DNA of 45,912 bases, the filler included, from Catajapyx aquilonaris (taxonomy: Eukaryota), in NCBI GenBank assembly GCA_000934665.2. It is 2 parts of 2 records of this genome, joined end to end, with 100 filler letters (N's around TTAATTAATTAA, not from the genome) between each part and the next. Parts side by side here need not be neighbours in the genome. Positions count along the whole stretch, not along the records: positions 1 to 23,058 come from KZ539422.1; 1 more part is not named here. One strand, written 5' to 3'. The notes beneath the pieces are model-generated. The model made no database searches. It was not told where the DNA came from and saw nothing but the letters and a program-made list of their open reading frames with translations. The stretch's first letter is position 1, and each line of letters opens with the position of its first letter. The position numbers and the translations under genes were made by a program. Positions 2,051 to 26,100 of the stretch are shown here, one piece after another.

Positions 2051-3113
2051 AATTGAAGAGTTTGGTGGAAAAATCGGATAAGTCCACTTTTGGTCGAAAA
2101 TGAGTTATGGCTGCCATCTTGTGGCCATTCTGCATCTTTTGGTACAAAAATCAGACCTGCCATGTGGTCCACTGAGGAAATATAGCCCTCCCAAGTGACC
2201 AGTGTACTGTCCAGAGTGCTCACCGGCCGCGTTTTCGCCCTCTCGCGGGTGAAATTCCAAAAGTCACCTCCTAGACTTTTCGAAAACATGAAGCACACAT
2301 TTCACGCTTCATTTACAGGTCTATTCAAAAAATCCCAAAAGTAGCGAACTTTGAGTTATATTAAAATCACAATTTCGCCGCAATCTTGAAATTGAAAGAT
2401 TTTAAAAGATTTTAAAGATTTCAATGCGATATTATTAAAGGCCTTTAAAATAGCTTCCAAAATCACTTATCACATCTGGATTCACTTTAGGGGTTCAGAG
2501 GTTATGGGCCTCCATCACAAGCCCTGACAGCGTCAAATGAGTGAAAAATCACAATTCCACACCCTGTAGTTTCGCAACTACGTGTCACAGAGAGACGCAA
2601 TCTCGGTTCCTTACTTAACAACGACGACTACTACAAACCCATCAATTTTGGTCGAAATCGGAAAATACTTGTCGGAAAAGTGGTCCTAGTTGACGTGGAA
2701 TGCCCCATTAATATAAGTCACTAAAGCGTGCAGTATGGCTGAACAGAGTGATGAGGAGTCTGAATCGTCTCATGATGAATTAGGTGATGAGTTTGTAACA
2801 CTATGTATGCCTATAATGGAGAAAAAAGATTGCCCATGCTCATAACATACACACAAAAATAATTTATTTGGACATGTCTGGTTCTCATTCGGTGCAAAAA
2901 CAAGACTTATCCACATTACACTCTACTGTAGAATGTGTAATATGCATTGTACAAACTTCATATTCTGGTGCATGTTGACTTTGGTATCATCCTATTCAAC
3001 AAAAAATTATCATTTTAAACATTTTTGAAATTTTCGAGGAATTCAGTTTTTCTTTGTTTTCTCGAAAGTATCAAAAGTGGACTTATCCTGTTTTTCCACC
3101 AAACCCGTCAATT
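2051..3113. repeat. Dispersed inverted repeat pair (2051-2092 and 3072-3113), likely subterminal repeats of a decayed DNA transposon
   Basis: AATTGAAGAGTTTGGTGGAAAAATCGGATAAGTCCACTTTTG is closely mirrored by CAAAAGTGGACTTATCCTGTTTTTCCACCAAACCCGTCAATT. Element boundaries are not resolved. Confidence 0.6.
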
Positions 3114-4050
3114 GTAATTTTGTAGAGTTGTATACTAGTGGCGTAGGCCTACCAAATAATTCGCATGCACATTTAAGACAACCAATGTAACATTCATTAC
3201 ATCGTATCATTAAGTGGACGCACTGACTTGATTATGCTACCGAATAATATGCCTAGCTCCTCTCAACGTCAGGTCGCGACATCCAAATTACATATCATTA
3301 AAAAATCACTTGCATAAACATTTTAAACACAACACGATGTTGCGTGTAGAAATAAAATGATGTGATCATTAGGCTACGCTTAGGTTTGAAGCTGTGGAAA
3401 CACGAAAGGAGAGACAGAAAAAAGCGTAATTGTTCAAATGACCTTGAGGTTATCCTACATGCGCAGAAAATGGGGAGGTAACCAGTACCGTTCATAAAGA
3501 ATGGTTCGACTCTACATGGACGAAATGTTTATTCTGTTCCCATCCCCTGGGTCGCCAGCATGTTTTTAGGGGTCATGAGGATGAGGAAGTCCGGGAAAAG
3601 GGAATCAAAATGAAATAAAAAAGAGAAGAAAAAAACAAAGAAAAGTAGGAAAATTTTAGGACGGAAATTCACATCAAATCTACGTAAGCATTGCACCTGG
3701 TTGAACATTTTGGTAATTAAAATTTGTATTTAAAAATCGGGATAAGCCATACGAGTCACCAGAGATCCAGAAACGGTTGTCTGTAGGGTTTTTCGAAATA
3801 AGGTTGGGAATAATGCTTGATAATCAGGATAAACATTTCGTCCAAGAGTCGTACCATTCTTTATGAACGAGACTGTACCACTTGCACTTCGGATAGTATG
3901 TCGCGACAGCATAATAGCCTATACTGTAGCCTAATACGTAATACCAGAGAGACTGCCGGAAAACATGATACCAACTTCATACCATAGGTACTGCACACAG
4001 GACACCATTCTGAGTCATCCTCTGATTAAAAATTACGGCCGATGCGCCAC

Positions 4051-4234
4051 ACTGTCGTCCCCCCAAAAAAGCCATATCTACAAAACCGGTAATACGAAGG
4101 TAGCCTGCAGGCGATGCACTCGTCCCTCCTGGCTCACCCCCTGAGTATACAGGCTATTGGGTGCAGGACATGCACGCGACTTTCGTCCTTACAAATTTGG
4201 TAGATATGGGTTTTTTCCGCCTTGGGATGGCAGT
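4051..4234. mobile_element. Degenerate small foldback/MITE
   Basis: The left arm ACTGTCGTCCC...AAAAAAGCCATATCTACAAAACCGGTAATACGAAGGTAGC pairs imperfectly with GCGACTTTCGTCCTTACAAATTTGGTAGATATGGGTTTTTT...GGGATGGCAGT. No clean TSD. Confidence 0.6.
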
Positions 4235-4319
4235 TAAGTCCTCCAAAGTTTGGGCAGTCAGCGATTCATCCAAATGCTACGTCCAGTAAGAACTCCGCCT
4301 CACTGGCTGAGTTTAACAC

Positions 4320-4613
4320 GTAGTTATGCAGATTAGTAAGCTATATTCGTACGAATAATGCAGATCAGAATGTTCAGTGCTTCTCGGTTCACACAAATTT
4401 AAAGACTGCAATAAAATTAAAACGGTCAAGTCACGCCGATTTGGTACGTGTCTACGTATTTTGAGTCACTAAGGTGACGTGATTGGGAAAAGTTCCAAAC
4501 CGTCATGACTTGGCTGTCTTAATTTTACTTCCTTTTAATTTGTACAGAGTGGCACTGAACATTCTGATAGTATACAAATTCGTACAAACAGGGCATACTG
4601 ATAGGTATGCTAC
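4320..4613. mobile_element. Degenerate foldback/MITE with ~125-bp arms
   Basis: Perfect 17-bp inverted match ATCAGAATGTTCAGTGC (4364-4380) / GCACTGAACATTCTGAT (4552-4568), with imperfect complementarity extending outward and inward. Confidence 0.7.
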
Positions 4614-9318: not shown

Positions 9319-12300
9319 GTAAGTTTACGACATATCTTCCACGTGTATTATCTGAAAGGTGGTGGCACTTTCCTTGTTGTTAACGACTTGCAGTTACTCT
9401 GTCCCCCTTTTTTATAGACCATTAGAATAGGTGTGCGCATTTCTAGCCATGCCATTTTCTCTTAGGAGATGCTAAAAACGTGACAATTATTGCCTCCTTC
9501 CTCGTCACGAAACTTACGTCGAAAAAATAGACAATTTTGTCAAAGTTTGACGAACGATTATATTGGTGCTGTTATTTTGTGTCTGGTTTTTAATGAGTAC
9601 ATATTATTTTGTCTTTTTATTTTATTAATGATATATATTCGAGGGAATTGTTGATGAATAATGAACTAGAATGATGTAGCACAATACGAGAGGTGAATAG
9701 TCATCTCCTTCTGACCACTTATATATGTCACACATTTTTTGTCAACTCAAGTGACGTTTAATCTAGATCAGTATGACTTTTCAAAACCTGGTACGGGAAC
9801 ACCAGAATGGGATATAGGAAGGTTGTGCATAGCCTGTGGTATTTTATTAGGAGTATGAACGTTCTCGGAATGCAGCTATGCTAGTTTTTATCCATCCTCT
9901 CTTTTTGCGGATAAAGGGGTAGTGCATTTCCTGTGGCAATGATATCATAAAAATGACATGGAACTTTCCATGGAATTGGCATTTTTCTCGATTGGGAGAG
10001 AGTAGGTGCAATCTACCTCTCTCACACATGTCTATAAAATTTCAGCAGCCATTAACTCAAGATTTTCCATCTCCTTCTCAGGTGCTACTGAATCCGCAAA
10101 CATTGACAAACCACACGTACATCCAAACTGTACCATGTCAACATGGATGGGAATACGACACCAGCAAGTACTATGTCACTGTTGTGTCAGAGGTAAATAT
10201 TTTTAAATGCTGACCTGCTGGCATATTCACCATGCACCGTTGGGAACGTTTGCATAAGTTGATACAAAACCCAATATCATATTGCTTTGCAAATATTGCT
10301 ACTCTAGCGTTGAAATGAGCTGCTGGAGATGTTCATAAATCGTCGTCTCCCTTACATCTTCCCTTTTCCCATCTGACATGATATGCCAATAATGTCCTTT
10401 GCTTCTAAGTACGACTGGGTGTGTGAGGAGAATTGGAGAGCAAGTGCGGCCCAAACTATCTGCTTCTTGGGCAGCATCATCGGCACGCTTATCTTCGGCT
10501 GGGCTGCAGACGCCTGGGGACGCCTTCCATGTTTGATCGCCTCCAATCTACTGGCATGTGCCTCCGGATTTGCCACTGCCTTTGTCACTGGATTCGCCAC
10601 CTTTGCAGCCTGTCGATTCTTATCGGGACTCACTCTTGGCACCTTTCACAGCATGGTTTATTTGATATGTGAGTCGATTTCTTTGTCTGTTCTAAATATA
10701 CGGTCAGTTTGGCCAATACAACTGAGTTTTTTAGATACTTACTAGATGGTCCGGTAACGATAATGGGCAGCCACGCGTAATATTATAAGAGGTTTAACAT
10801 TAACCCTTTTGAATATGTTGATTTTTTTGGTGGGGAGAAAGGGGATTGAACTCCAATCCACTCCCTCTGTGCTATTAGAGCTAGTCCTGGCCAATGGTGA
10901 TGAGAAACTCTACACTCATTTGTCAGTGACATGGTTAAACTTAACCTAACCATGCATTAAACGCCGTTGTCCGGTCCCACAAGGGAAGCAGTGTCACTAT
11001 CTTCTCTGGAACCATATTTATTTTAGCAGCCACTGAATAAATGAAATGCTTATATTTTTGCCGGGAGTTAGGAAGCACTAAGATTTATTATATAAAATGC
11101 TACAATTTAAGTCAGCGAAGGGTCAGTGCCCTATAACATAGACAGCATGTTATAAGAGAATTGAACACAGCTCTGCTAAATGTGGCACTATTTTGTTTGC
11201 TAGTTTCGCTCCAATGACTACGATCAGCTGGTTGTTGTCTATCGCAAATTTATTCAAATCACTAGTTTACCCTGGGTCAAGGTATCTAACGTCACAAACC
11301 GGCTTCTTCCGTCATAATTGGTTCAAGGGCATCCTTTCGTCTAGAAACATGTCGTGATGGGCAGGGCCAGTGATGTAAGGTTAGTGGTTCCGGCAAAAAG
11401 CGTATTGGTTGAAGTGAATAACTGACTTGTGCTGGCGCCAATGTTCAAGTTCAATCGCCCCTCCATATAGTGTATAAGGCAGGAAATTTTTTCCCCCATC
11501 CTGCACTCTTCTTCTTGGCTGCATAATTAGCATCCTATTGTACAGCCACGTTGATTAACATAGTCATTGTTCGTCATCCCTTTCAAAAGGCCCGTGGCGA
11601 ATGGCAAGCAGTGTCAGAAATATATGAATATAAGGCACCGTTAAACTTAACGTTAGAAAATGATGAGATAGCTTGATACCAGAGTTCTTCAAAATGACAT
11701 ATTGTGACAGCTTTGTGATGCTGCAACTGGCATTATGATACAAGTTCAAGTCAAAGTGTGCCAAGATAGACACTAGTGGCATATCTCCACATCATTCCAA
11801 CCCGCTTGGCAGGTACGGTTGCCAAATGCTTATTAGACCAGGTGTATAGGGTTGCAGAAACACACAAGCGATAAGAGTATGGGAATTCGGAACGGATGTT
11901 CAGTATGTAACTTTGGTGCAAATAGGTCGGTTTTGTAACAAAAATGTGAACTATTACGATACGATATGGACCACATTCCTCCTCGAGACCTTGTTCTATA
12001 GGGATTGGCTATAAATTCACGCGGAACAGCTGTTGTCGTTTTGTTTAGCATTCGGAATATATGAGTTACGTGCTGTTTGAAACACTGAGGTGTTTAGCGG
12101 TAGAGAACGCTGACACCAAGATGCATTGAATGTAAACAGAGCTTGGAATAAGGGGTCAGAGCTAAACTTAATTACACTAGTTGTATCTCTGGCTAGAAAC
12201 TGGAATTAAAAATACACTGTGGCATGAGGACTTCTTTTTTTAAGAACCTTTTTGTGAAAGGCGTTGCCAAGATCGTGAACATCTCTTGCCAACAACAGGC

Positions 12301-14784
12301 TAAAATTAGTGCTATTGAAATTGGGATGAGATAATTCTGGTTTACATTCAGTCGGAATAGGTTAAATAAAGCCGCAGCATCCTTTTTTATTCAGATGACC
12401 TCCATTTATATCGCTTATTCATCATTCTGTTGCACTCCCAGTCATAAGGAAACGAGCCGGTAAACCCGTACAAAAAGTGACATGGTGAAATATGATTAAC
12501 GCTCTAGGCCACTTGACTGCGGACCTACACAATTATCGTTGCACACCGTTACGTCACTGACACGTCACATCGCAGCTTCGTTGCTCAACACGTGCTACGT
12601 AATAAAAACTATATTCTTGCCACATGTGCAGAACAGAGTCCCGAAATGTCTTGCTCATTATGGACCCCATGCATAGAGTTTCCAAGGTGACCTAAGGGAC
12701 TCATTGATGTCTGATGCTCCTTAACGAAGTATTTGAAGAACGAGGCGACATGCGGGGTTGCATGAGACCTGAATGCTTTCTACAGACAGCCGCGACAAAA
12801 TTACTATTACCAGAGTGACAATCTGCAATGTGACGTGTATAGGGGAGTCGTCATTTGGAATATGTTTTCAGCTTGGTGGTTTTCAAACTGGGGTACGCGA
12901 ACACAATTTTGGGGGTACGCGAAAGATTTTTGGCAATGGCGTCCAGTCTCTACATTAGTGGTAACCATATAATATTCTGATTCAACCAGAAGGAACCAAC
13001 TTCTGAGAAAAACACAAAAAATGGTACTACTTATTCCCATCTTTCTTTTTGCTATTACAGTTGAATCCGGATATAGCAGACTTCAAGGGACCGAGGAAAT
13101 CAGTATGTTATAACCGAGCCGCAGCTGTTATATCCGGAGGCGACTGTATTATTTTAGGGAAGTTTTATTATATGCAGAGGCATTTTCTGACTGATGCCAT
13201 TTTCATTCAGCACACGATTTGAGACTCAAGAAGCAACATGGTAGTGTTAACAGTGTTAACTCGAAAATGCCAAAAGTAGAGTTAAGTCCTTTTCCTAATA
13301 TCTGGTTCAATTCTATCACTGCGCTATATGCAACGTTGTGAGGGATTTGAAAATAAACTCTGGCTGCACAGGCTGATCTACCTGGCCTTAAAAATTTCGA
13401 GTCTCAAAGAATGAAACAGAGGGCTTCAAGACATCACCGCCAATACAGCATTTCATGTGCAAAATACGTAATTATCGAAGGAATTACGAAGGAATTATCG
13501 AAAATTCCAGTTTTGGGAATGTTGAGTATGCTACAAGGTAGCAAATTTTCTTGCTTTCCAACACTCCAAGAATTTCAAAGCGGCAGTGGAGACCTAGTTG
13601 AGGTCAGCTTTCAAGTCAACATATTGGATCACAAGAATCAACTGGCGCAATAGTTTATAAAAAATATTAATTTCCAGAGCTGGACATGCCAATCATTTGC
13701 ATCAGGACTTGAGATTTCTTTATACCCCTCCCGAACATGTCAGAGCAGAATCAGGAAAAGTTCACCAAAATTTCTACGAATGAAGTTTGAAATTTAAAAT
13801 AACCCTTCTGAACTTTGGGCTGAAAAAATGGAAACCTATATCCGGGCCTGGCAACCAGTGGTCTGAAGTACTTAATACCATTTACTGACTGCCTAATAAT
13901 TATGTGAAGCTTGCAGTATTTTTGCGTTGACGTCCATGAAAACAAAGTACCGTCATCGACTCTACTTGTATGTTGAGAAAGACCTCAGGCTTAAATATAT
14001 TGACGCCATTTGTGAAAGAAAGAAATCACACCCATCGCACTAACTGATAAGACACAATTACAATATATTTTCAGGTTGAGTTGGGGGGGGGGGGGGNNNN
14101 NNNNNNNNNNNNNNNTGAAAAGGGGTACGCGTCACTGTGCTAGAGTAGATACGGGACAGAAGACACGCTGATCAGTGCGCCTCCACGCGTTGCTGGCGTG
14201 GACTACGTGCACACATCCTCACCTTGGGTAAAGATATTCCGTGTAGTATAGGATCAAGAGCGACAAGAAACGAGTTGAACGTGCAAGGAAACCGGTGTCA
14301 GTTTGAATAATTGAGTTTGAAATGTCAATGAAACTAGTTTCGCCTTCGTATTAAGGTGCAAGGAGATGTAGTGGGCAGAATGCGACAGAAAATGCTCACG
14401 CTTTTTGGTGTAGTAAATTAAGAAACCCTCAAGTATACAGGGTGGTCCAACATCAAGTGTCGTTTTATAATGGCGATTAATAGCAGTGATTTTGCGATGA
14501 CGTAGCAGCGACGCGTAAAATGTCCCACTTCGGCGCCATCGAAGTGGGCAATTTTACACGTCGCTGCTACGTCAATCGTAAAGCGCTTCTATTAATAGCC
14601 GTTATAAAACGACACTTGATGTTGGACCACCCTGTATAAACAGTAAGGTATATTATAGTGAATATGATTATTTTTATGAAATATTAAAGTGTTGTCGTAT
14701 CAAAAGTATGAAAAGTCAGCGATTCATCCTGCAGTAATGATTTTTCCATTACAAAATTAGCATTATTATGAGGTGCAGGTTGCC

Positions 14785-17816: not shown

Positions 17817-18695
17817 AATATAACCGTATGTGATCATCGAACTGTTATTCAGTAATTGAATAATTTGTTAAACATTTCTAAGGCGCAGCATCGAGTTACC
17901 TTGTGCATTTATAGAATGCATCGTGATATTAAAGGAGGATTGATAATAGACAATCCCATACCGGACATTTATATCTGTAGTGAGTATTTTATTAACATGG
18001 GGCATTTTTTGAGTGGAGATTAGCTGTAGGCATTGCCAAGCCATGTGTTCCAAATTCGTGTCTTCTGTACTGGTGGCCTATGCCAGAAACTTCGCCAGAA
18101 ACTCAAAACTCCCTATATTTAAAGGGTAACCTTTTTTACTATGCATAGCCTATTATTGCCGATTGTTGCACATGAATTCAAGGTCAGTACTTTTGTAGGT
18201 TAGATAATTTTATACCGGCAGTTATGATACTGAGGGCGTGTTGTATGCAAGTAAAATAGGGGAAAATCGCAAATATTCGCGACGACATCATCACGACATT
18301 ATCGGAGATTTTCTTTATAATTTTCATTCGTACAACCAGCCCTGATGTGTAATCAGTGATGATACCTTTTTTATTTTCTCGGCGTCACGAACATAAAAAA
18401 AATTCTGTAGTATTATATTTATCCGATAAGCTTGCTGCAGTACGAGTACTTCACCCTAATACCTTAATACTTTATCCCGATTGATATGTCTGATTGTCAA
18501 AAGATAAAAACTCCCTGCACCGCACCTTCCTCTTGGGTCTCAATAATACAATGTCAATGTGATATGTATATGCACGACTTAAAAGCCCAGTCTTAGATGT
18601 TATATTATTATATTATGTTTGGGTTACACCTAAGCTTATCTGACGCATACAAGTCACAAGGACCAAACCTATTTCTCAAAGTTACAATAATTATA

Positions 18696-19382
18696 TAGGG
18701 TCATCGAAAAAGAATATCCCAATTTTAAAACCTCTCGAAAACTTGAGACATATCTATATGATTTAAGTTTTGAAATGCTAAGAAAAGTCTTAAAATTTTG
18801 GTCTCGCCATAGTTTGTTTCGATATGAAGTCCGTTTGTCGCTCAGCAAATAAACAAGACTGCATTCGGTTTCGAGCCCACCCCGGTCAATCATATCTGGA
18901 GCTACCGTTGCAATCATATCCCGTAGGTTCTGGAGATGATAGGTCGTTGTACCACACACATTGTTCTTGATGATGCACATAAAAAAAGTCACATCATCCA
19001 TGAAATAATCCTGCCGTAGGAAAGTTTCATTTGTTCAGGCCCCCAGTGTGCGACATCTTGAATGAGAAGTTTCCCCATGCCTAGCCCAGGAGCCCAGATT
19101 TTACCCCGATGGGCTTTTTTGTGGAGATACATGTCTGGTGAAAAGATCCGGCATATCCAGCACCTATGGGATAGGATCACAATGGTGACTTCAGACACGT
19201 CTGATTGGGTTTGGCAAGACACTGTGAGTACCGTATTTACATTTTCGAGCCACAAATGGAGTTCATTTCGAAACAAATTTAGGTGAGACGAAAACTTTTG
19301 ACCTTTCTTAGGATTTAAATATGTCTACAAGTTTTCGAGCTATAAGGTTTTAAAATTGGGACATTCTTTTTCGATGACCCTG
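18696..19382. mobile_element. Tc1/mariner-derived foldback built from two inverted transposon 3' ends
   Basis: TA-flanked TIRs TAGGGTCATCGAAAAAGAATATCCCAATTTTAAAACCT / AGGTTTTAAAATTGGGACATTCTTTTTCGATGACCCTG. Transposase C-terminal remnants lie on both strands: minus, FFMCIIKNNV...LQNLRDMIATVAPDMIDR; plus, PRSPDFTPMGF...IQHLWDRITMVTSDT...RATNGVHFE. Confidence 0.85.
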
Positions 19383-19637
19383 TACTTGATATCTACAGTA
19401 TTACCGAGACCTTGAAACCTTAAATGTAGTACATTAATAATGCGAATGTAAGATATTGCAAGTGACAGCTATGCAGGCCATCCCTTCTACAACCATGTTT
19501 TAAAGATAATAATAATTATTTTATATTTCTATTCGTCTTAGATGGCCTCCATAAATTATTATTTTTCGACTAGAGCAAGATTGTCATACTGTATAGTACT
19601 TGCATAATGCAATCCATTTAGTATAAATGGTGAGGAA

Positions 19638-20319
19638 CTGACAAGGGAACGGTCAGGGTCGAGAACCTCCGATTTGGTTGAAACTGGCTTGGGGGGTCAT
19701 TCATGTGCGATAGACACAGTGGTGAAAGTGTTAGCTCTCACTGTCCAGCCGTTTCCGAGATATGAGTGACAGTAACATCCGAATTTTGGCCACGCGCATT
19801 TGCCGGGAGCCGCTATGCCAGCTCCAAATCCCTTCTACCTTGATTGCCCCGCTCCCCTTTCGATCGCATACAGTATCCCCCACTCCCCCACCAACATTTC
19901 CGTTTTCCATTGTTTCTTTGCTCCGGTATTTATTATGAGTTTTCCCCATTACCCAATTTTAGGTATAGAAGCTCTTTATTCGCAGTTGACAGAAGTGAAA
20001 GAAAGCAGCTTGATGGTCTCATAATAAATACCGGAGCAAAGAAACTATGGAAAACGAAGATGTTGGTGGGGGAGTGGGGGATGGTGGTGTGGGATCGAAA
20101 AAAGTGGGGGGAATCAAGGTAGAAGGGATTTGGAGCTGGCAGAGCGGCTCCCGGCAAATGCGCGCGGCCAAAATTCGGATGTTACTGTCACTCATATCTC
20201 GGAAACGGCTGGATAGTGCGAGCTAACACTTTCACCACTGTGTCTATTGCACATGAATGACCCCTCATGCCAGTTTCAACCAAATCGGAGGTTCTCGACC
20301 CTGACCGTTCCCTTGTGAG
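19638..20319. mobile_element. Long foldback element: ~302-bp inverted arms (19638-19939 and 20018-20319) with a 78-bp spacer
   Basis: CTGACAAGGGAACGGTCAGGGTCGAGAACCTCCGATTTGGTTGAAACTGGC... is mirrored by ...GCCAGTTTCAACCAAATCGGAGGTTCTCGACCCTGACCGTTCCCTTGTGAG. This explains the twin ORFs MPGAAMPAPNPFYLD (+) and MPGAALPAPNPFYLD (-). No clean TSD (AA on the left, TA on the right). Confidence 0.93.
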
Positions 20320-20684
20320 TATGATTCACCGTGTAGCATACTCGTATTATTATGTAAATTATATATCGAAGATGAGATAATCTCATCCCCATATAATATA
20401 TAATATAGATAAATGCCTTCCTTCTAGCACTTTTATTTTATCCTGACAATGTCCATCTGTTCTGTACTCGGGACTTTTATGTCAAATGATTGTACTGGTG
20501 CAGAAAAGTGCCTCGATCAGGCTCGATCCTTTAAGGGCTCAATATATACTGTATAATAAAGGTGTGAAGTAATAAAGATTAATTATATTATTTGTGTTTT
20601 GGTTGCTCACGGAATAGCATGAGAGGTGGAGTTGTATGGCGGATCAAATGAAACCCGAATAAATTATGGTGTCTGGACCAGATA

Positions 20685-21655
20685 CCGTATTACCCATGGG
20701 TTTAGATATTAAGAAGACTCGGGTTAGGTCACTCCCACCCACCCCCTGCCGCTGCCGGGGCGTTTTGCAGCGGGTGCTCACCTGAGAGCGCCATGAGACA
20801 TTTCTGAGCCCAGGTAAGTGGCAACCCTACCGGACTAGACTGAACTTTATAGGTACGAAAGGGAAGCGCTCAGAAGCGCTGCATGCGAGCCGCCGGCGGC
20901 CATGTTGGCCCCCCCAATGTAGCCCTCCCCTTTCGTACCTATAAAGTTCAGCCTAGTCCGGTAGGGTCGCCACTTACCTGGGCTCCTAAATGTCTCATGG
21001 AGCTCTCAGGTGAGCACCCGCTGCAAAATGCCTCGGCAGGCGAAAACGCCAGAATGTAGTACCGGTATAAGTGTCCGGGGGCTGGTATTACCTCTCATAT
21101 TGCGTCACTCCGGTATAAAACGAGGTCGACCAGCATGCCGGCATAACCCGGGGGTGGCCAGCATGCTGCAATAACCGATGTAGATTTCCGTAATTTTGAT
21201 CCATGCCAAATTTTTTGGAATGCTTCTGGTACCATACTAAAATAATGTTACAATGAAAATGGGCAAGTGTACAGGCTGTGAGAATATGTCAGTTCTGCTG
21301 CACAGTACATTTAAAAAATGTAGAGTGTATGACCAATCCCATCGTCAGCCTGCTTTGACAGGGGAACCGCCTGCTCTAACATAGCCTACTGTTTAAATAG
21401 AGATTGTTGCCAAACACTGCAATATTGAAAACAAGATAATTATGGTAGGGGTAGCCTATTTGGAAAATGTGCCTTTTCGATGGCCTTTACGTGAATTTCG
21501 ATTTTCAGGCAAATGTCAAGTTCAGAAAGGATAATGTAACTTATGTGAAAACCTCGCCCTATACCGGCATGCCGGTATAGCCACCATAACGTGCATTCCT
21601 AAAAACTGGCCGACCGCGCTTACACCGGCAGGCCGCAATATGAGAGGTAATACGG
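20685..21655. mobile_element. pogo/Tigger-like MITE (~573 bp once the nested insertion and one TSD copy are removed); left TIR interrupted
   Basis: The reconstructed left end TA|CCGTATTACC+TCTCATATTGCG (20685-20694 joined to 21093 onward) matches the right end CGCAATATGAGAGGTAATACGG|TA (21634-21655). A weaker inverted match continues inward. Confidence 0.85.
20695..21084. mobile_element. Palindrome-core insertion element, copy A (390 bp, 8-bp TSD GTATTACC)
   Basis: TSD at 20687-20694 and 21085-21092. Ends CATGGG...GGGGCTG. Internal palindrome 20752-21039 centred on GCC|GGC at 20894/20895. Confidence 0.92.
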
Positions 21656-21788
21656 TACTACTTAAGGCATGGATTTGAAACTGCCGGCACAGGAAGATGG
21701 TATCGATCCCTCCAATTGGCATGAGTTAGAATCTTCGCGCACATACCGCGGCCAGCATAATTTCCAAATACACATAGTTCGTCCAGGC

Positions 21789-22161
21789 CATGGCTGTAGA
21801 AGTCTCAGGTTAGGTCACTCCCCACCCACCCCCTGCCGAGGGGTTTTGCAGTGGGTGCTCACCTGAGACCGCCACGAGACATTTCCCAGAGCATTTATGT
21901 GGCGACCCTACCGGACTAAGGCTGAACTTTATAGGTACGAAAGGGGAGGGCTACATTGGGGGGCCCAACATGGCTGCCGGCGGCCATGTTGGGCCAGCAT
22001 GTAGCGCTTCCCTTTCGTACATGTAAAGTTCAGCCTTAGTCCGGTAGGGTCGCCACATAAATGCTCTGGGAAATGTCTCGTGGCGGTCTCAGGTGAGAAC
22101 CCGCTGGAAAACCCCTCGGCAGGTGATAAGCCCAGAAGATAGGGGTAGTGTCCGTGGGCTG
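21789..22161. mobile_element. Palindrome-core insertion element, copy B (373 bp, 8-bp TSD GTCCAGGC)
   Basis: TSD at 21781-21788 and 22162-22169. Ends CATGGC...TGGGCTG. Internal palindrome 21832-22123 centred on GCC|GGC at 21978/21979. Homologous to copy A from end to end. Confidence 0.92.
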
Positions 22162-22770
22162 GTCCAGGCCAGGGTCCCCTACATGGTTGCCTCCCCCACC
22201 CTAACCCGGGTAGCCGGTATCCTTTCTGTCGACAGCCGTGAAGTTAACTTTTCTTCCGCCTGGCGGCGCTGGAGGCCAAAGGGACCCCGCAAGGCGCGCT
22301 GCTCAAGTGGATGGTGACAATAGGCAGAGGGGCGACCACGGGTGGCCCACGCTGCTGGCACAGTGGGGGGCGGGGGGGGGGGGATTCTAGTATTTCACAT
22401 GACCAGGATGTCTGCTAGCCCAAAGGTCAGCATCCCAGAGGAATCAGACGTAATTCCAGGGTCAAAGTTTGCACTCCAGACGTTCACCTAGACTAGAGTC
22501 TTCCTTATTACTTATTACTTATTTTTAATTACTGGGTTCAGCCATGTTAAAAAGCAGGACCAACTCGAGTGCATACTTTGCATTCCAAGGCTCAGTTTGG
22601 AGTGCAGACTTCAAAGTAACAATAATAATAATAATATTTTGGGAGTGCAAATAGCACTTTGCATCCAAATATTTCGACCCCTGCATTATGAGCCCAATAA
22701 TAACTAGCATTTGGGCTGCTTCCAACACCCTTTTTACTATCTACAATATTAAAATGCTTGCGTTGCTTGA

Positions 22771-22908
22771 CCAATCCCTCTGATTGGTCCGCCCCCGTAT
22801 TGTTGCCGCCACCTCTTCCCATTGGCCCCCGTCCATTCTTGCCGCGACGTATCCATGGCGCACTGTTGCCACGACGCCTCCGATTGGCTCCCGTTCCGAG
22901 CATGCGCA
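22771..22908. promoter_or_regulatory. Promoter-like motif cluster (CCAAT/ATTGG x4, GC box, NRF1/Ewg-like GCATGCGCA)
   Basis: CCAAT at 22771; ATTGG at 22783, 22821 and 22883; CCGCCC at 22789; GCATGCGCA at 22900-22908, in CpG-rich sequence just before the assembly linker. Function is inferred only. Confidence 0.4.
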
Positions 22909-23058
22909 GTGGGGGTGTAACACGTCCAGTTACATGTTGACCTCCTTGGGAGAAGGTCGCTTTTTTTTTCGTCTCTCCCGCCGCCGTCATCGTCACGCCG
23001 GACCTTTTTCCCTTCCCCACCTACCATACCTGTCCCCCCTTCGCCGCGGGTCACTGGT

Positions 23059-23158
23059 NNNNNNNNNNNNNNNNNNNNNNNNNNNNNNNNNNNNNNNNNN
23101 NNTTAATTAATTAANNNNNNNNNNNNNNNNNNNNNNNNNNNNNNNNNNNNNNNNNNNN
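23059..23158. other. Artificial scaffolding linker (44 N + TTAATTAATTAA + 44 N)
   Basis: Exactly 100 nt, with a centred 12-mer that has stop codons in all six frames. Smaller N gaps lie at 14097-14115, 15927-15942 and 41331-41344. Confidence 0.95.
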
Positions 23159-26100
23159 CCCCCCCTCACTGAAACCTGGGTTGAATTGAAAACAACGGGT
23201 GTGTCATATCCACCTGCAACATTTTGCTCGAAATTTAATTATTTCCGCGGTGACATTATTATGGTATTCTTGGTACACATAGGCAACGGAGCATTACTGA
23301 GATTGGCCCCCACCTCTCTTCTGAAATCTGGCTTGTCGATGTCCCTGGTCAGCCATTTGGCCAAATCCCCTCGGAATGATCGCGTTTTACGCCCCCCTTC
23401 ACCTCCCGAGGCCCCCCGGAAAACTCCGGGAGCCCAGGATGAATGCAACGCGCCTGAAATGTGTTCTTGTTCGTATAAGCTGCCAGAAACAAAATTAGTT
23501 TTACGGTGAAGAGCCCGGCTGTGCAACGCCCAAAAAATGAAAGGAGAGAGGGGGGGGAAGGGGGAGAGACTTTAAAAACCGTCCCCCCCTTTTTATCCTT
23601 ACCATCCCTGCATCGTCTTGCCGGATACGGCCATCGTTTTTCACATGCTACATTCTCCAGACGTCGAGAGCGAGATCGCCTTTGCTGATTCAACGCTCTT
23701 GAGATCATGTCACGCACAGTCACACGGTTAATTCGGCTCATACGTTACAAATGCTGGTATGTCTCTCAAACGTTGCGCAAAAATTCGACATCGGGGTGTA
23801 AACACCGCAAACTTCCTCGGCCCTCTTTATTTAGCTTGATCAATACAAACTGGCGTTTTTTTTTTTTCTTCCATCCGGCCCTTCCCTGGCGGCGGGAAAT
23901 CTTTCTTCGGGTAGGCGAAAGGGACGGAAAGGCCTGTCTCGAGGCGCGAAAAAAAAAAAAACTGAAGAAGAAGAAAAAAAGAGTGAGGATCTGCTGGAAA
24001 TTGGCGGGCGCTATGGCGAATTCGGGCCGAGCTGGGCACACTATTCCAAGGCAAATTCGTTCCTGACAGCTTCACAGCCCTTCTTCGGGACGGGCCCCCC
24101 CTCTTTTTCCTTTTTGGCAGAGTTCTTTCTGGGGATTGCCCCGGGCCTGGGCGTCTCTTGGGGGCCCAGACGTGACAGTTGGGGCCACACAGGAAGAAAG
24201 GTGGAGGGGGCAGAGGGGGGGTTGGACTGGAAGGAACAGATTCGCCGATACGCACACTCCTCTCTCCTTTCCAGCAAACCCCTAAAACCCATCAAGGATA
24301 CAAGCAGGCTGCCTTACAGCTCGCTTGTAAGACAGAGTCAATAGCACCGAAATGCTGGGGCTTAATCTGGCACTGAGCCCAAACTACTGTAGTTAGGAAG
24401 AAAACCCACTTTGGGGAGGGGGGGAGGCCTGCAACAATCTGTCATTGCCTCCAATATGGGAGCCTGGCACAATTTCGACTGCCTTTTGCCTAAGGCAACA
24501 TTGCAATTCATTGCGTTTTTACAGCTGTAGGTGCATGTGCAACGTGGTGACGCAACCCCACTTTGTAAGGAGGACTGAATATTCCACATCCTGCCCCTCG
24601 CGCCAAGTAGGAAATGATTCGTCTGAAAATAAAACGGATTGCATGTCCTTCTGTGCTTCAGAACATGGCGAGGGGGGGGGGGGGGGGGCATGACCGGCGA
24701 GATAATTTTCGTGCCACTGTTGTTTTAAATTGCGAGCCCCAAAGTGAAGACGGGCCCACCCCTCCTCTCCTGCTGCCTCCAGTTCCCTTTCCAGAACGCA
24801 ACTTCTCTCTCCATTACTCTCTCCGTCCAATTAGCAGCATCCTGAACTGAACAATAGAGAAGTCTATACTTCTCCGTGATATACGCTGGCTGCACAGAAC
24901 TAACGAATTCCGATGGGGTTGCAAGAGGTGGGAATGAGAAGTGAGTTTGGGTGTGAATAATAACCCATTTTGCGGACCCCCTGCAGCTCCCCTATCATCC
25001 CTCCTTTAAAAAAAACTATATTATAATAGAAAAAAAATATGTAGTCGTCGAGGCGAGAGTTCAAAGACGGGCGAAGTTGCAACCGCGGTTTCTAAGTGGT
25101 CGGAAATCTTGTTGGGCGAGTCAAGGCTCTCCCCAGCATCCAGCAGAGAGGACCCCCACACAGGAACTCTCTCTTTAAGCTCAACTGCGTCGTCTCTATA
25201 TCATTTAAGCCCTTACATCATCGCTATACACATGCCTCCCCATCTCTTTTTCTTTGAAGCTATACAGAGGGATGACTTTCGCTCGTGAACTTAACCCACT
25301 TACGTCGCAGCTGGAGTGTACTTACGCTCTGCGAAAATATTGGGGCCATCTTTTTGGGCGGTGCGTTCATCAAGCCGGAAAAAAAACTGGTAGCCCCCTA
25401 CAAAATTACTGCATCCCGTCACGCGTTGCACATAAATCCATGAAATATTCATCACTGCAGATGTGCATGTTATCGACACACGCACATGTCCTGCGCTGCT
25501 TTTTTTATATATATTTCGAGCCTCACCCTTCATTCACGATCCCCCCAAAAAGCAAAACCTGACCTAAGAAATTCGTCTGATCCGAAAATAGAAATGTGGG
25601 CTCTAGAACCTGATCCGGTTATCCAAGACCTGGCTCTTGATCAGTGTAGCCGTGGCTGGTGTCTGAGAAATGGCGTCTAGCAGCCCGGATTGACAGTCAC
25701 TAGACCCACAGGTAAATCCTCCTCAGCCTCTTGAAGGATCATTTCCATTTGGAGGAGGAGCTGGGAAGAGCTCCCCCCCCCCCCCCCCCCTCTCTCTCCC
25801 CCAAAACTTCATCCCACGGACACCCTTCCAGAAAACCATCTTTCCTGCGAAACCAATTCGAGTTTCACAAGACCCCCGTAATACCTTTCCTAATTGGAAT
25901 CGATAGTGTGGCACATTATTCTTACGAGATAGCATAAATTATGGGAGCAGCAGCTTCTCGTACGGAAAAAAAAAAGAAGAGGAAGGCCCCCTGTTCCATT
26001 AGTACTTAGAGAGAGGTGGAGGAAGATTTTCTCAACACATTTGTCCTTAGTGAAAAGAGAGCGACTCCCGAGAAAAGGAGTGGATATTAATTCTGGCAGA

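Follow-up and report, generated by a model that had tools for sequence, protein, structure and literature searches.

A repeated non-autonomous DNA transposon in Catajapyx aquilonaris: unrelated tips and an invertible foldback core

The window analysed here, a stretch of 45,912 nt from the genome of Catajapyx aquilonaris, carries two copies (A and B) of a DNA transposon that is real, repeated and non-autonomous; its tips are unrelated, and its foldback core corrects itself and can be inverted. What is new here is that the arms of this core are homogenised within each copy and that the core is inverted between A and B. As for the way in which the element moves, we give about an even chance to a non-autonomous DDE element, likeliest of the P type, whose foldback core is kept symmetric by template switching or conversion.

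Two independent insertions

Realignment of A and B, which are 79% identical over 381 alignment columns, bore out what a sequence-only reading of the window had claimed of their coordinates, their duplications, their CATGG and GGGCTG ends and the sharing of CA alone by the two tips, without any terminal inverted repeat (TIR) (Table 1). The target-site duplications (TSDs) are each perfect and differ from one another, and the two copies lie in different hosts. A and B are thus independent insertions, as had also been proposed, and a tandem duplication giving rise to both is ruled out. The window contains no further copy. Within one copy, the unique left and right ends are unrelated (p 0.97 and 0.31, 2000 shuffles); like ends (left with left, right with right) do match between A and B. 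The 6-bp duplication seen in the left end of A is absent from most of the contig depth of the family. The claim that A and B share the same orientation holds for these unique ends but not for the inner core, which is inverted in A relative to B.

Table 1. Coordinates of the two copies, their parts and their hosts in the window
Feature	Position	Strand	Remarks
Copy A	20695..21084	+	390 bp, CATGG...GGGCTG, no TIR
Left TSD of A, GTATTACC	20687..20694	+	present singly in empty-site proxy
Right TSD of A, GTATTACC	21085..21092	+	
Unique left end of A	20695..20751	+	8-bp insertion relative to B; 6-bp duplication at ~20746
Unique right end of A	21040..21084	+	last 17 bases identical to consensus of right-tip family contigs
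Internal palindrome of A	20752..21039	.	outer arms 107/116 identical; left inner arm rearranged
Host element of A	20685..21655	.	TA-flanked repeated MITE, TIRs starting CCGTATT; right TIR is the empty-site proxy
Copy B	21789..22161	+	373 bp, CATGG...GGGCTG, no TIR
Left TSD of B, GTCCAGGC	21781..21788	+	
Right TSD of B, GTCCAGGC	22162..22169	+	
Internal palindrome of B	21832..22123	.	outer arms 111/118 identical
Inner left arm of B	21919..21984	+	97% complementary to inner right arm of A (20889-20954); core-inversion marker
Weak 11-bp inverted repeat candidate	21813..21823 (partner 22143-22153)	+	9/11, p 0.31, not significant alone
Repeat C, host of B	22170..22240	-	opens with a motif resembling the left tips of A and B

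The duplication is most likely 8 bp long. Perfect 8-mers flank both copies, as had been claimed; a length of 7 bp is also formally possible, the eighth base being C in both duplications, and A and B are also compatible with a duplication of 7 bp and an element that begins CCATGG. No length above 8 bp suits both A and B (the direct repeat at B reaches 10 bp by chance). The 8-bp length is favoured because it results in CA...TG symmetry at the tips, because the related repeat C starts T|CACGG, and because the consensus of the flank that follows the right tip, drawn from few contigs of one sample, carries AC at positions 7-8 in each of the four runs (and an initial G in three of the four).

Copy A interrupts the left TIR of its host MITE, within 10 bases of the MITE tip. 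From its TA flanks, we take this host to be of the Tc1/mariner type. When A and one 8-mer are removed, the sequence is identical to the other TIR of the host MITE at 24/24 positions. This empty-site proxy carries the 8-mer once, so the TSD of A is real. Among the contigs listed, 32-36 per run enter the host MITE uninterrupted at the insertion point of A. An artefact of assembly is ruled out, since a contig of single-copy depth (461 nt, depth 30.7) crosses the left junction of A, showing 0 differences up to 20751, and since the arms do not match perfectly; none of the contigs listed spans a whole copy. Other contigs skip the host MITE (joints 20661 to 21650-21667) and reveal the MITE's own empty site in a lower-copy repeat.

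Copy B is inserted in repeat C. The contig depth of this repeat is high over ~70 bases right of B but just ~200-330 to the left of B, a drop which indicates that the shared part of repeat C ends near the insertion site of B. Within the window, the left-tip signature occurs only at A, B and C (0/200 shuffles, with a pattern built post hoc from these three), and the pairwise left-tip likeness of C has p values of 0.01 and 0.08. The window holds no convincing partner end with duplication for repeat C, which is a possible sister element. Isolated 13/14 matches to the left and right tips of B were also seen at 19497 (minus strand) and 25810 (plus strand); they have no convincing partner end with duplication and are relics or chance.

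A much-repeated family

The evidence at the family level comes from assembled contigs of four runs of a single sample, possibly the source sample itself, and is therefore not independent of the assembly; full-length readings rest on the two copies A and B. In run X1, the summed contig depth over bins of the element is ~6,000-61,000, against 30.7 for the contig at the left junction of A. This sum is no copy number, since overlapping short contigs inflate it; single arm positions have a depth of ~2,300-4,600. We infer from contig depth a family of many tens to hundreds of copies, as an estimate. Among the loose ends listed, the right tip followed by a variable flank was found in 14, 9, 14 and 9 contigs of the four runs, and the left tip in none; the conservation of the left tip across the family is judged from A, B and the read depth at the left end of B. 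A and B belong to a much-repeated family with a conserved right tip. Like a classical MITE, the element is short, non-coding and repeated; terminal inverted repeats are absent.

Searches further afield gave 0 matches to the arm pattern in metagenomes, and 0 and 0 matches to the arm and repeat-C patterns in viral contigs. Matches to the right-end pattern at 10 metagenome and 10 GTDB loci were dropped as chance, 0/20 matching beyond seed-length words.

The internal palindrome

Both copies contain the internal palindrome of ~290 bp that had been described, which makes up ~75% of the element. The loop-less centre attributed to it is long in B but not in A. In B, the centre is spacerless (21978|21979) and symmetric over 18 bp on each side with one mismatch, whereas A, centred at 20894|20895, is symmetric over just 6 bp on each side (12 bp). 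The mismatch of B is corrected by the family contigs (21975 T>C, 44753/45441 of summed depth, 59 contigs, run X1), which render the centre a perfect spacerless palindrome. Folded as single-stranded DNA, A and B have z values of -20.6 and -28.9, and 0/100 shuffles are equally stable. The palindromes end 57/45 bp (A) and 43/38 bp (B) inside the tips, short of the terminal reach of foldback or Galileo-like repeats.

It could be supposed that A and B are ordinary MITEs whose TIRs have decayed in these two copies, or that a short host element encloses a palindromic MITE. In favour of this, the consensus of loose ends before 20752 mixes left-type and right-type letters (agreement 0.6), so that some subfamilies may be symmetric further out. 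However, A and B hold the same two different tips despite ~20% divergence, and among the loose ends listed, 9-14 contigs per run carry the right tip again. In addition, no direct repeat longer than 3 bp was found within 6 bp of the palindrome edges in A or B. The loose ends at these edges, among the contigs listed, are family-like and short, with a median of 14-16; at the true ends of the host MITE, in contrast, the median is 255 and the agreement ~0.4. Given these edges and loose ends, there is no sign that the palindrome is a separately nested MITE, an outcome that the sequence-only reading had named as one that would count against it; as far as can be told, it is not one. Decay or nesting thus appears the least probable of the explanations considered.

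Arm homogenisation and core inversion

Alignment of the four arms gives 10 copy-specific columns, in which both arms of one copy share a state absent from the other copy (one further concerted column was dropped as a boundary effect), and 0 columns that follow the side of the arm. Near the centre, four columns (three changes) pair the left arm of A with the right arm of B and the right arm of A with the left arm of B. In a simulation without exchange, the mean number of concerted columns is 0.1-0.4, with a maximum of 5 in 20000 runs at 8% divergence. These 10 concerted, 0 same-side and 4 flipped columns, set against the simulation, indicate that the arms within a copy copy each other and that, in one lineage, the core has turned round with respect to the unique ends.

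Where a palindrome is imperfect, template switching yields both homogenisation and inversion. Simple conversion alone does not explain the pattern, as the inner asymmetry persists in A and B though the outer arms are homogenised. Recombination and conversion were also proposed for the long inverted repeats of Galileo, in the part of that study consulted (PMC3573991). The upkeep of the palindrome is explained by ordinary arm-to-arm repair: its earlier description as maintained stands for the homogenisation of the arms within copies, but does not extend to selection for a cruciform or hairpin or to a use in transposition.

Such a use would make the palindrome a working part of the element, a hairpin or cruciform intermediate being nicked or resolved at the spacerless centre to give flip and flop isomers, as in hairpin-ended replicons. 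The inversion of the core between A and B, the inner asymmetry kept in both while the outer arms were homogenised, and the perfectly spacerless centre of the family contigs are all in keeping with this. However, A has a damaged centre and yet went in cleanly, or has persisted, and repeat C may have the left tip without the palindrome. Furthermore, symmetry is common in the window, where unrelated palindromic repeats, TA-flanked or other, have arms 87-96% identical, and any long inverted repeat is expected to invert and homogenise, according to the part of PMC3573991 consulted. We regard a working palindrome as very improbable.

Sequence setting of the insertions

The region between 9040 and 17650 contains exon-like pieces of a major-facilitator transporter gene, one of which matches the Pfam families Sugar_tr and MFS_1 at 10383-10745; the other pieces are presumably of the SLC22/organic-cation-transporter kind. 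A palindromic MITE of 205 bp with TA-flanked CAGGGTG ends lies at 14434-14638 and is assumed to be Tc1/mariner-like. The element at 18694-19384 has 40-bp TIRs (95%) and additional inverted segments in its interior; it is probably another mariner-type non-autonomous element, and a near-perfect palindrome of 684 bp (19637-20320, arms 95-96% complementary) is found 370 bp left of A. The window also carries microsatellites and several repeats, among them a two-copy direct repeat at 311-465 and 630-782 (spacing 317-319 bp, 78-86% identical). From ~20000 to 45912 the G+C content climbs from ~0.40 to 0.45-0.53, and the cumulative GC skew falls steadily from ~32000; no Pfam family in the scanned frames explains these shifts. 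An Rfam scan of 19000-24000 gave nothing over A or B, the matches being below gathering scores and mostly to miRNA models on another hairpin.

Mode of transposition and superfamily

Helitron and Helentron (HUH) elements are not known to make a target-site duplication. The short fixed duplication and the CA...TG tips of A and B point to a DDE transposase and not to HUH or Helitron-type movement, and the HUH/Rep mobiliser that the sequence-only reading had named among the candidates to look for is unlikely, the duplication being confirmed by the empty site. Its proposal of a non-autonomous element with asymmetric ends lacking TIRs is supported. In the window, 0/137 stop-free frames of 75 or more codons, N-containing frames excluded, match a transposase family (of 138 frames, one was omitted from this count, being scanned separately and matching Sugar_tr/MFS_1), a result that counts against the P-type explanation.

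The P-type explanation starts from two steps that the data show: each copy went in as one piece bounded by fixed tips, at a short staggered cut whose width was most probably 8 bp, and the family is repeated, its right tip being conserved at other loci. The unique ends of 38-57 bp would be what is left of the two ends of an autonomous element, and would bear its recognition signals. Taken jointly, these three steps are very likely. In the foldback core, the observed pattern would result from arms that copy each other by template switching or conversion, the centre being sometimes inverted. The most tentative step is the superfamily, which would be P rather than hAT or KDZ (Kyakuja-Dileera-Zisupton).

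The TSD lengths of P elements and the target motif of hAT used here are those in the consulted part of PMC3276498. The duplications of A and B agree with the 7-8-bp TSDs of the P superfamily; the tips, which share CA only, lack its TIRs, whose length is 13-31 bp, or 3 bp in the repleta lineage. Both duplications start with GT and end with C, which was counted in favour of P together with the flank consensuses. The P motif GTCCGGAC is matched at 6/8 positions by the duplication of B and 3/8 by that of A, the first seven bases of the latter being the Galileo consensus GTATTAC. The hobo (hAT) motif GTNCGNAC does about equally well, at 3/6 and 4/6. For three published THAP sites, A has 2 matches at no more than one mismatch against 0.5 expected (p 0.10) and B has 0, so that enrichment is not significant in A or B. 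No subterminal repeats of the length seen in BuT5 (16-17 bp) were found in A or B. The weak 11-bp candidate of B begins 24 bases inside the left tip and its partner 8 bases inside the right tip.

Alternatively, an element of this kind could owe its movement to a hAT transposase, its left and right TIRs having diverged beyond recognition. The 8-bp duplications are those of hAT, their GT......C form resembles the hobo motif, and on the minus strand the right tip gives CAGCC, which we take to be a hAT-like start. Like hAT MITEs and Hermes, A and B combine an 8-bp TSD with a target motif starting with GT and functionally asymmetric ends, Hermes binding its two ends asymmetrically in the published excerpts (PMC10368747, PMC3276498). 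However, these elements keep matching TIRs, which in Hermes are 17 bp long and differ by two pairs (PMC10368747, PMC3276498), against CA alone in A and B. Moreover, in relation to the hAT target nTnnnnAn, both duplications have T at position 2 but neither has A at position 7, and no short subterminal repeat array stood out in a cursory 5-mer count of A and B. A hAT origin is considered unlikely, while still the foremost of the alternatives.

A non-autonomous derivative of a KDZ transposon appears rather less likely. TSDs of 7-8 bp together with CA..TG ends without TIRs, as found in A and B, occur in this group: Zisupton and Dileera produce 8-bp TSDs, and Kyakuja, with CA..TG ends but no TIRs, makes TSDs of 7 bp (PMC12730594, in part), which matches the possible 7-bp reading. 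Homologues of Zisupton are present in several animal phyla, according to part of PMC9297572. In contrast, the KDZ elements described in the available part of PMC12730594 are autonomous fungal elements of 13-24 kb, those without TIRs being fungal and Zisupton having TIRs; no short palindromic derivative is described there, and the 5' ends among the supplement rows listed resemble A and B, by eye, in CA alone. The TIRs of KDZ1 from Cryptococcus are 236 bp long (PMC11343200, excerpt). The KDZ domain (PF18758) is absent from the scanned frames of the window.

It is improbable, though less so than a working palindrome, that A and B represent an undescribed DDE lineage without TIRs. Its unrelated tips would be paired by fixed spacing, with a signal 8 and 24 bases inside them (compare the 12/23 rule of V(D)J recombination), and its spacerless palindrome would exist in flip and flop isomers, perhaps through an amplification step with a hairpin or cruciform. 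The P-type explanation is preferred to these; the element works like a BuT5-type element. It is filed in none of P, hAT and KDZ, the test of matching TIRs failing for both P and hAT.

Comparison with known elements

The earlier statement that no standard class matches was overstated: the architecture is rare but has precedents in BuT5 and the P elements of the repleta group, in Kyakuja and in Dada (a list of superfamilies is given in the consulted part of PMC9587614). BuT5 and its P master from the Drosophila repleta group have 3-bp TIRs, 8-9-bp TSDs and sub-TIRs of 16-17 bp, which in BuT5 are almost symmetric and end 32 and 30 bp in; BuT5 was unclassifiable until its master was found (PMC3698922, in part). 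A and B are like BuT5 in being non-coding, in their 8-bp TSD (also 9 bp in BuT5), in a near-absent TIR and in dissimilar left and right ends, which are conserved in BuT5. They differ in that their tips share 2 bp instead of a 3-bp TIR and ~75% of the element is palindromic, whereas BuT5 is ~1 kb long, with near-symmetric sub-TIRs and matches to THAP sites, and with no long internal palindrome described in the part of PMC3698922 consulted. P transposase binds internal sites at unequal spacers of 9 and 21 bp (PMC7776569, excerpt). The P-MITEs of Anopheles belong to elements with TIRs of 27-31 bp in the part of PMC1562414 seen, and were counted against P.

Galileo and other foldback elements of the P superfamily have long inverted repeats, for which reshaping by recombination or conversion has been proposed, and Galileo occasionally has an 8-bp TSD, as stated in parts of PMC4168063 and PMC3573991. 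However, its inverted repeats are terminal and its TSD mostly 7 bp, whereas the repeats of A and B stop 38-57 bp short of unrelated tips. Dada, also a DDE element, has no TIRs but only short subterminal inverted repeats; unlike A and B, it has a TSD of 6-7 bp and strictly targets small-RNA genes (PMC3706591, excerpt). No small-RNA gene of Rfam was found at the insertion sites of A and B. Each feature thus has a precedent; an element that joins unrelated tips to an 8-bp TSD and a long palindrome in its interior is without a published match in the literature searched, a search that left most subscription journals outside.

Significance

Finders based on TIRs miss or mis-trim elements of this kind, which may therefore be under-counted. 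Without a transposase, the family stays an odd non-autonomous case with partial precedents. If a master with both tips exists, it would show the minimal end symmetry that a eukaryotic DDE transposase needs, and its discovery would open asymmetric end pairing to a natural test in a system other than P and RAG. Together with an orientation marker, the paired arms preserve a natural record, spread over many loci, of how template switching or conversion has acted.
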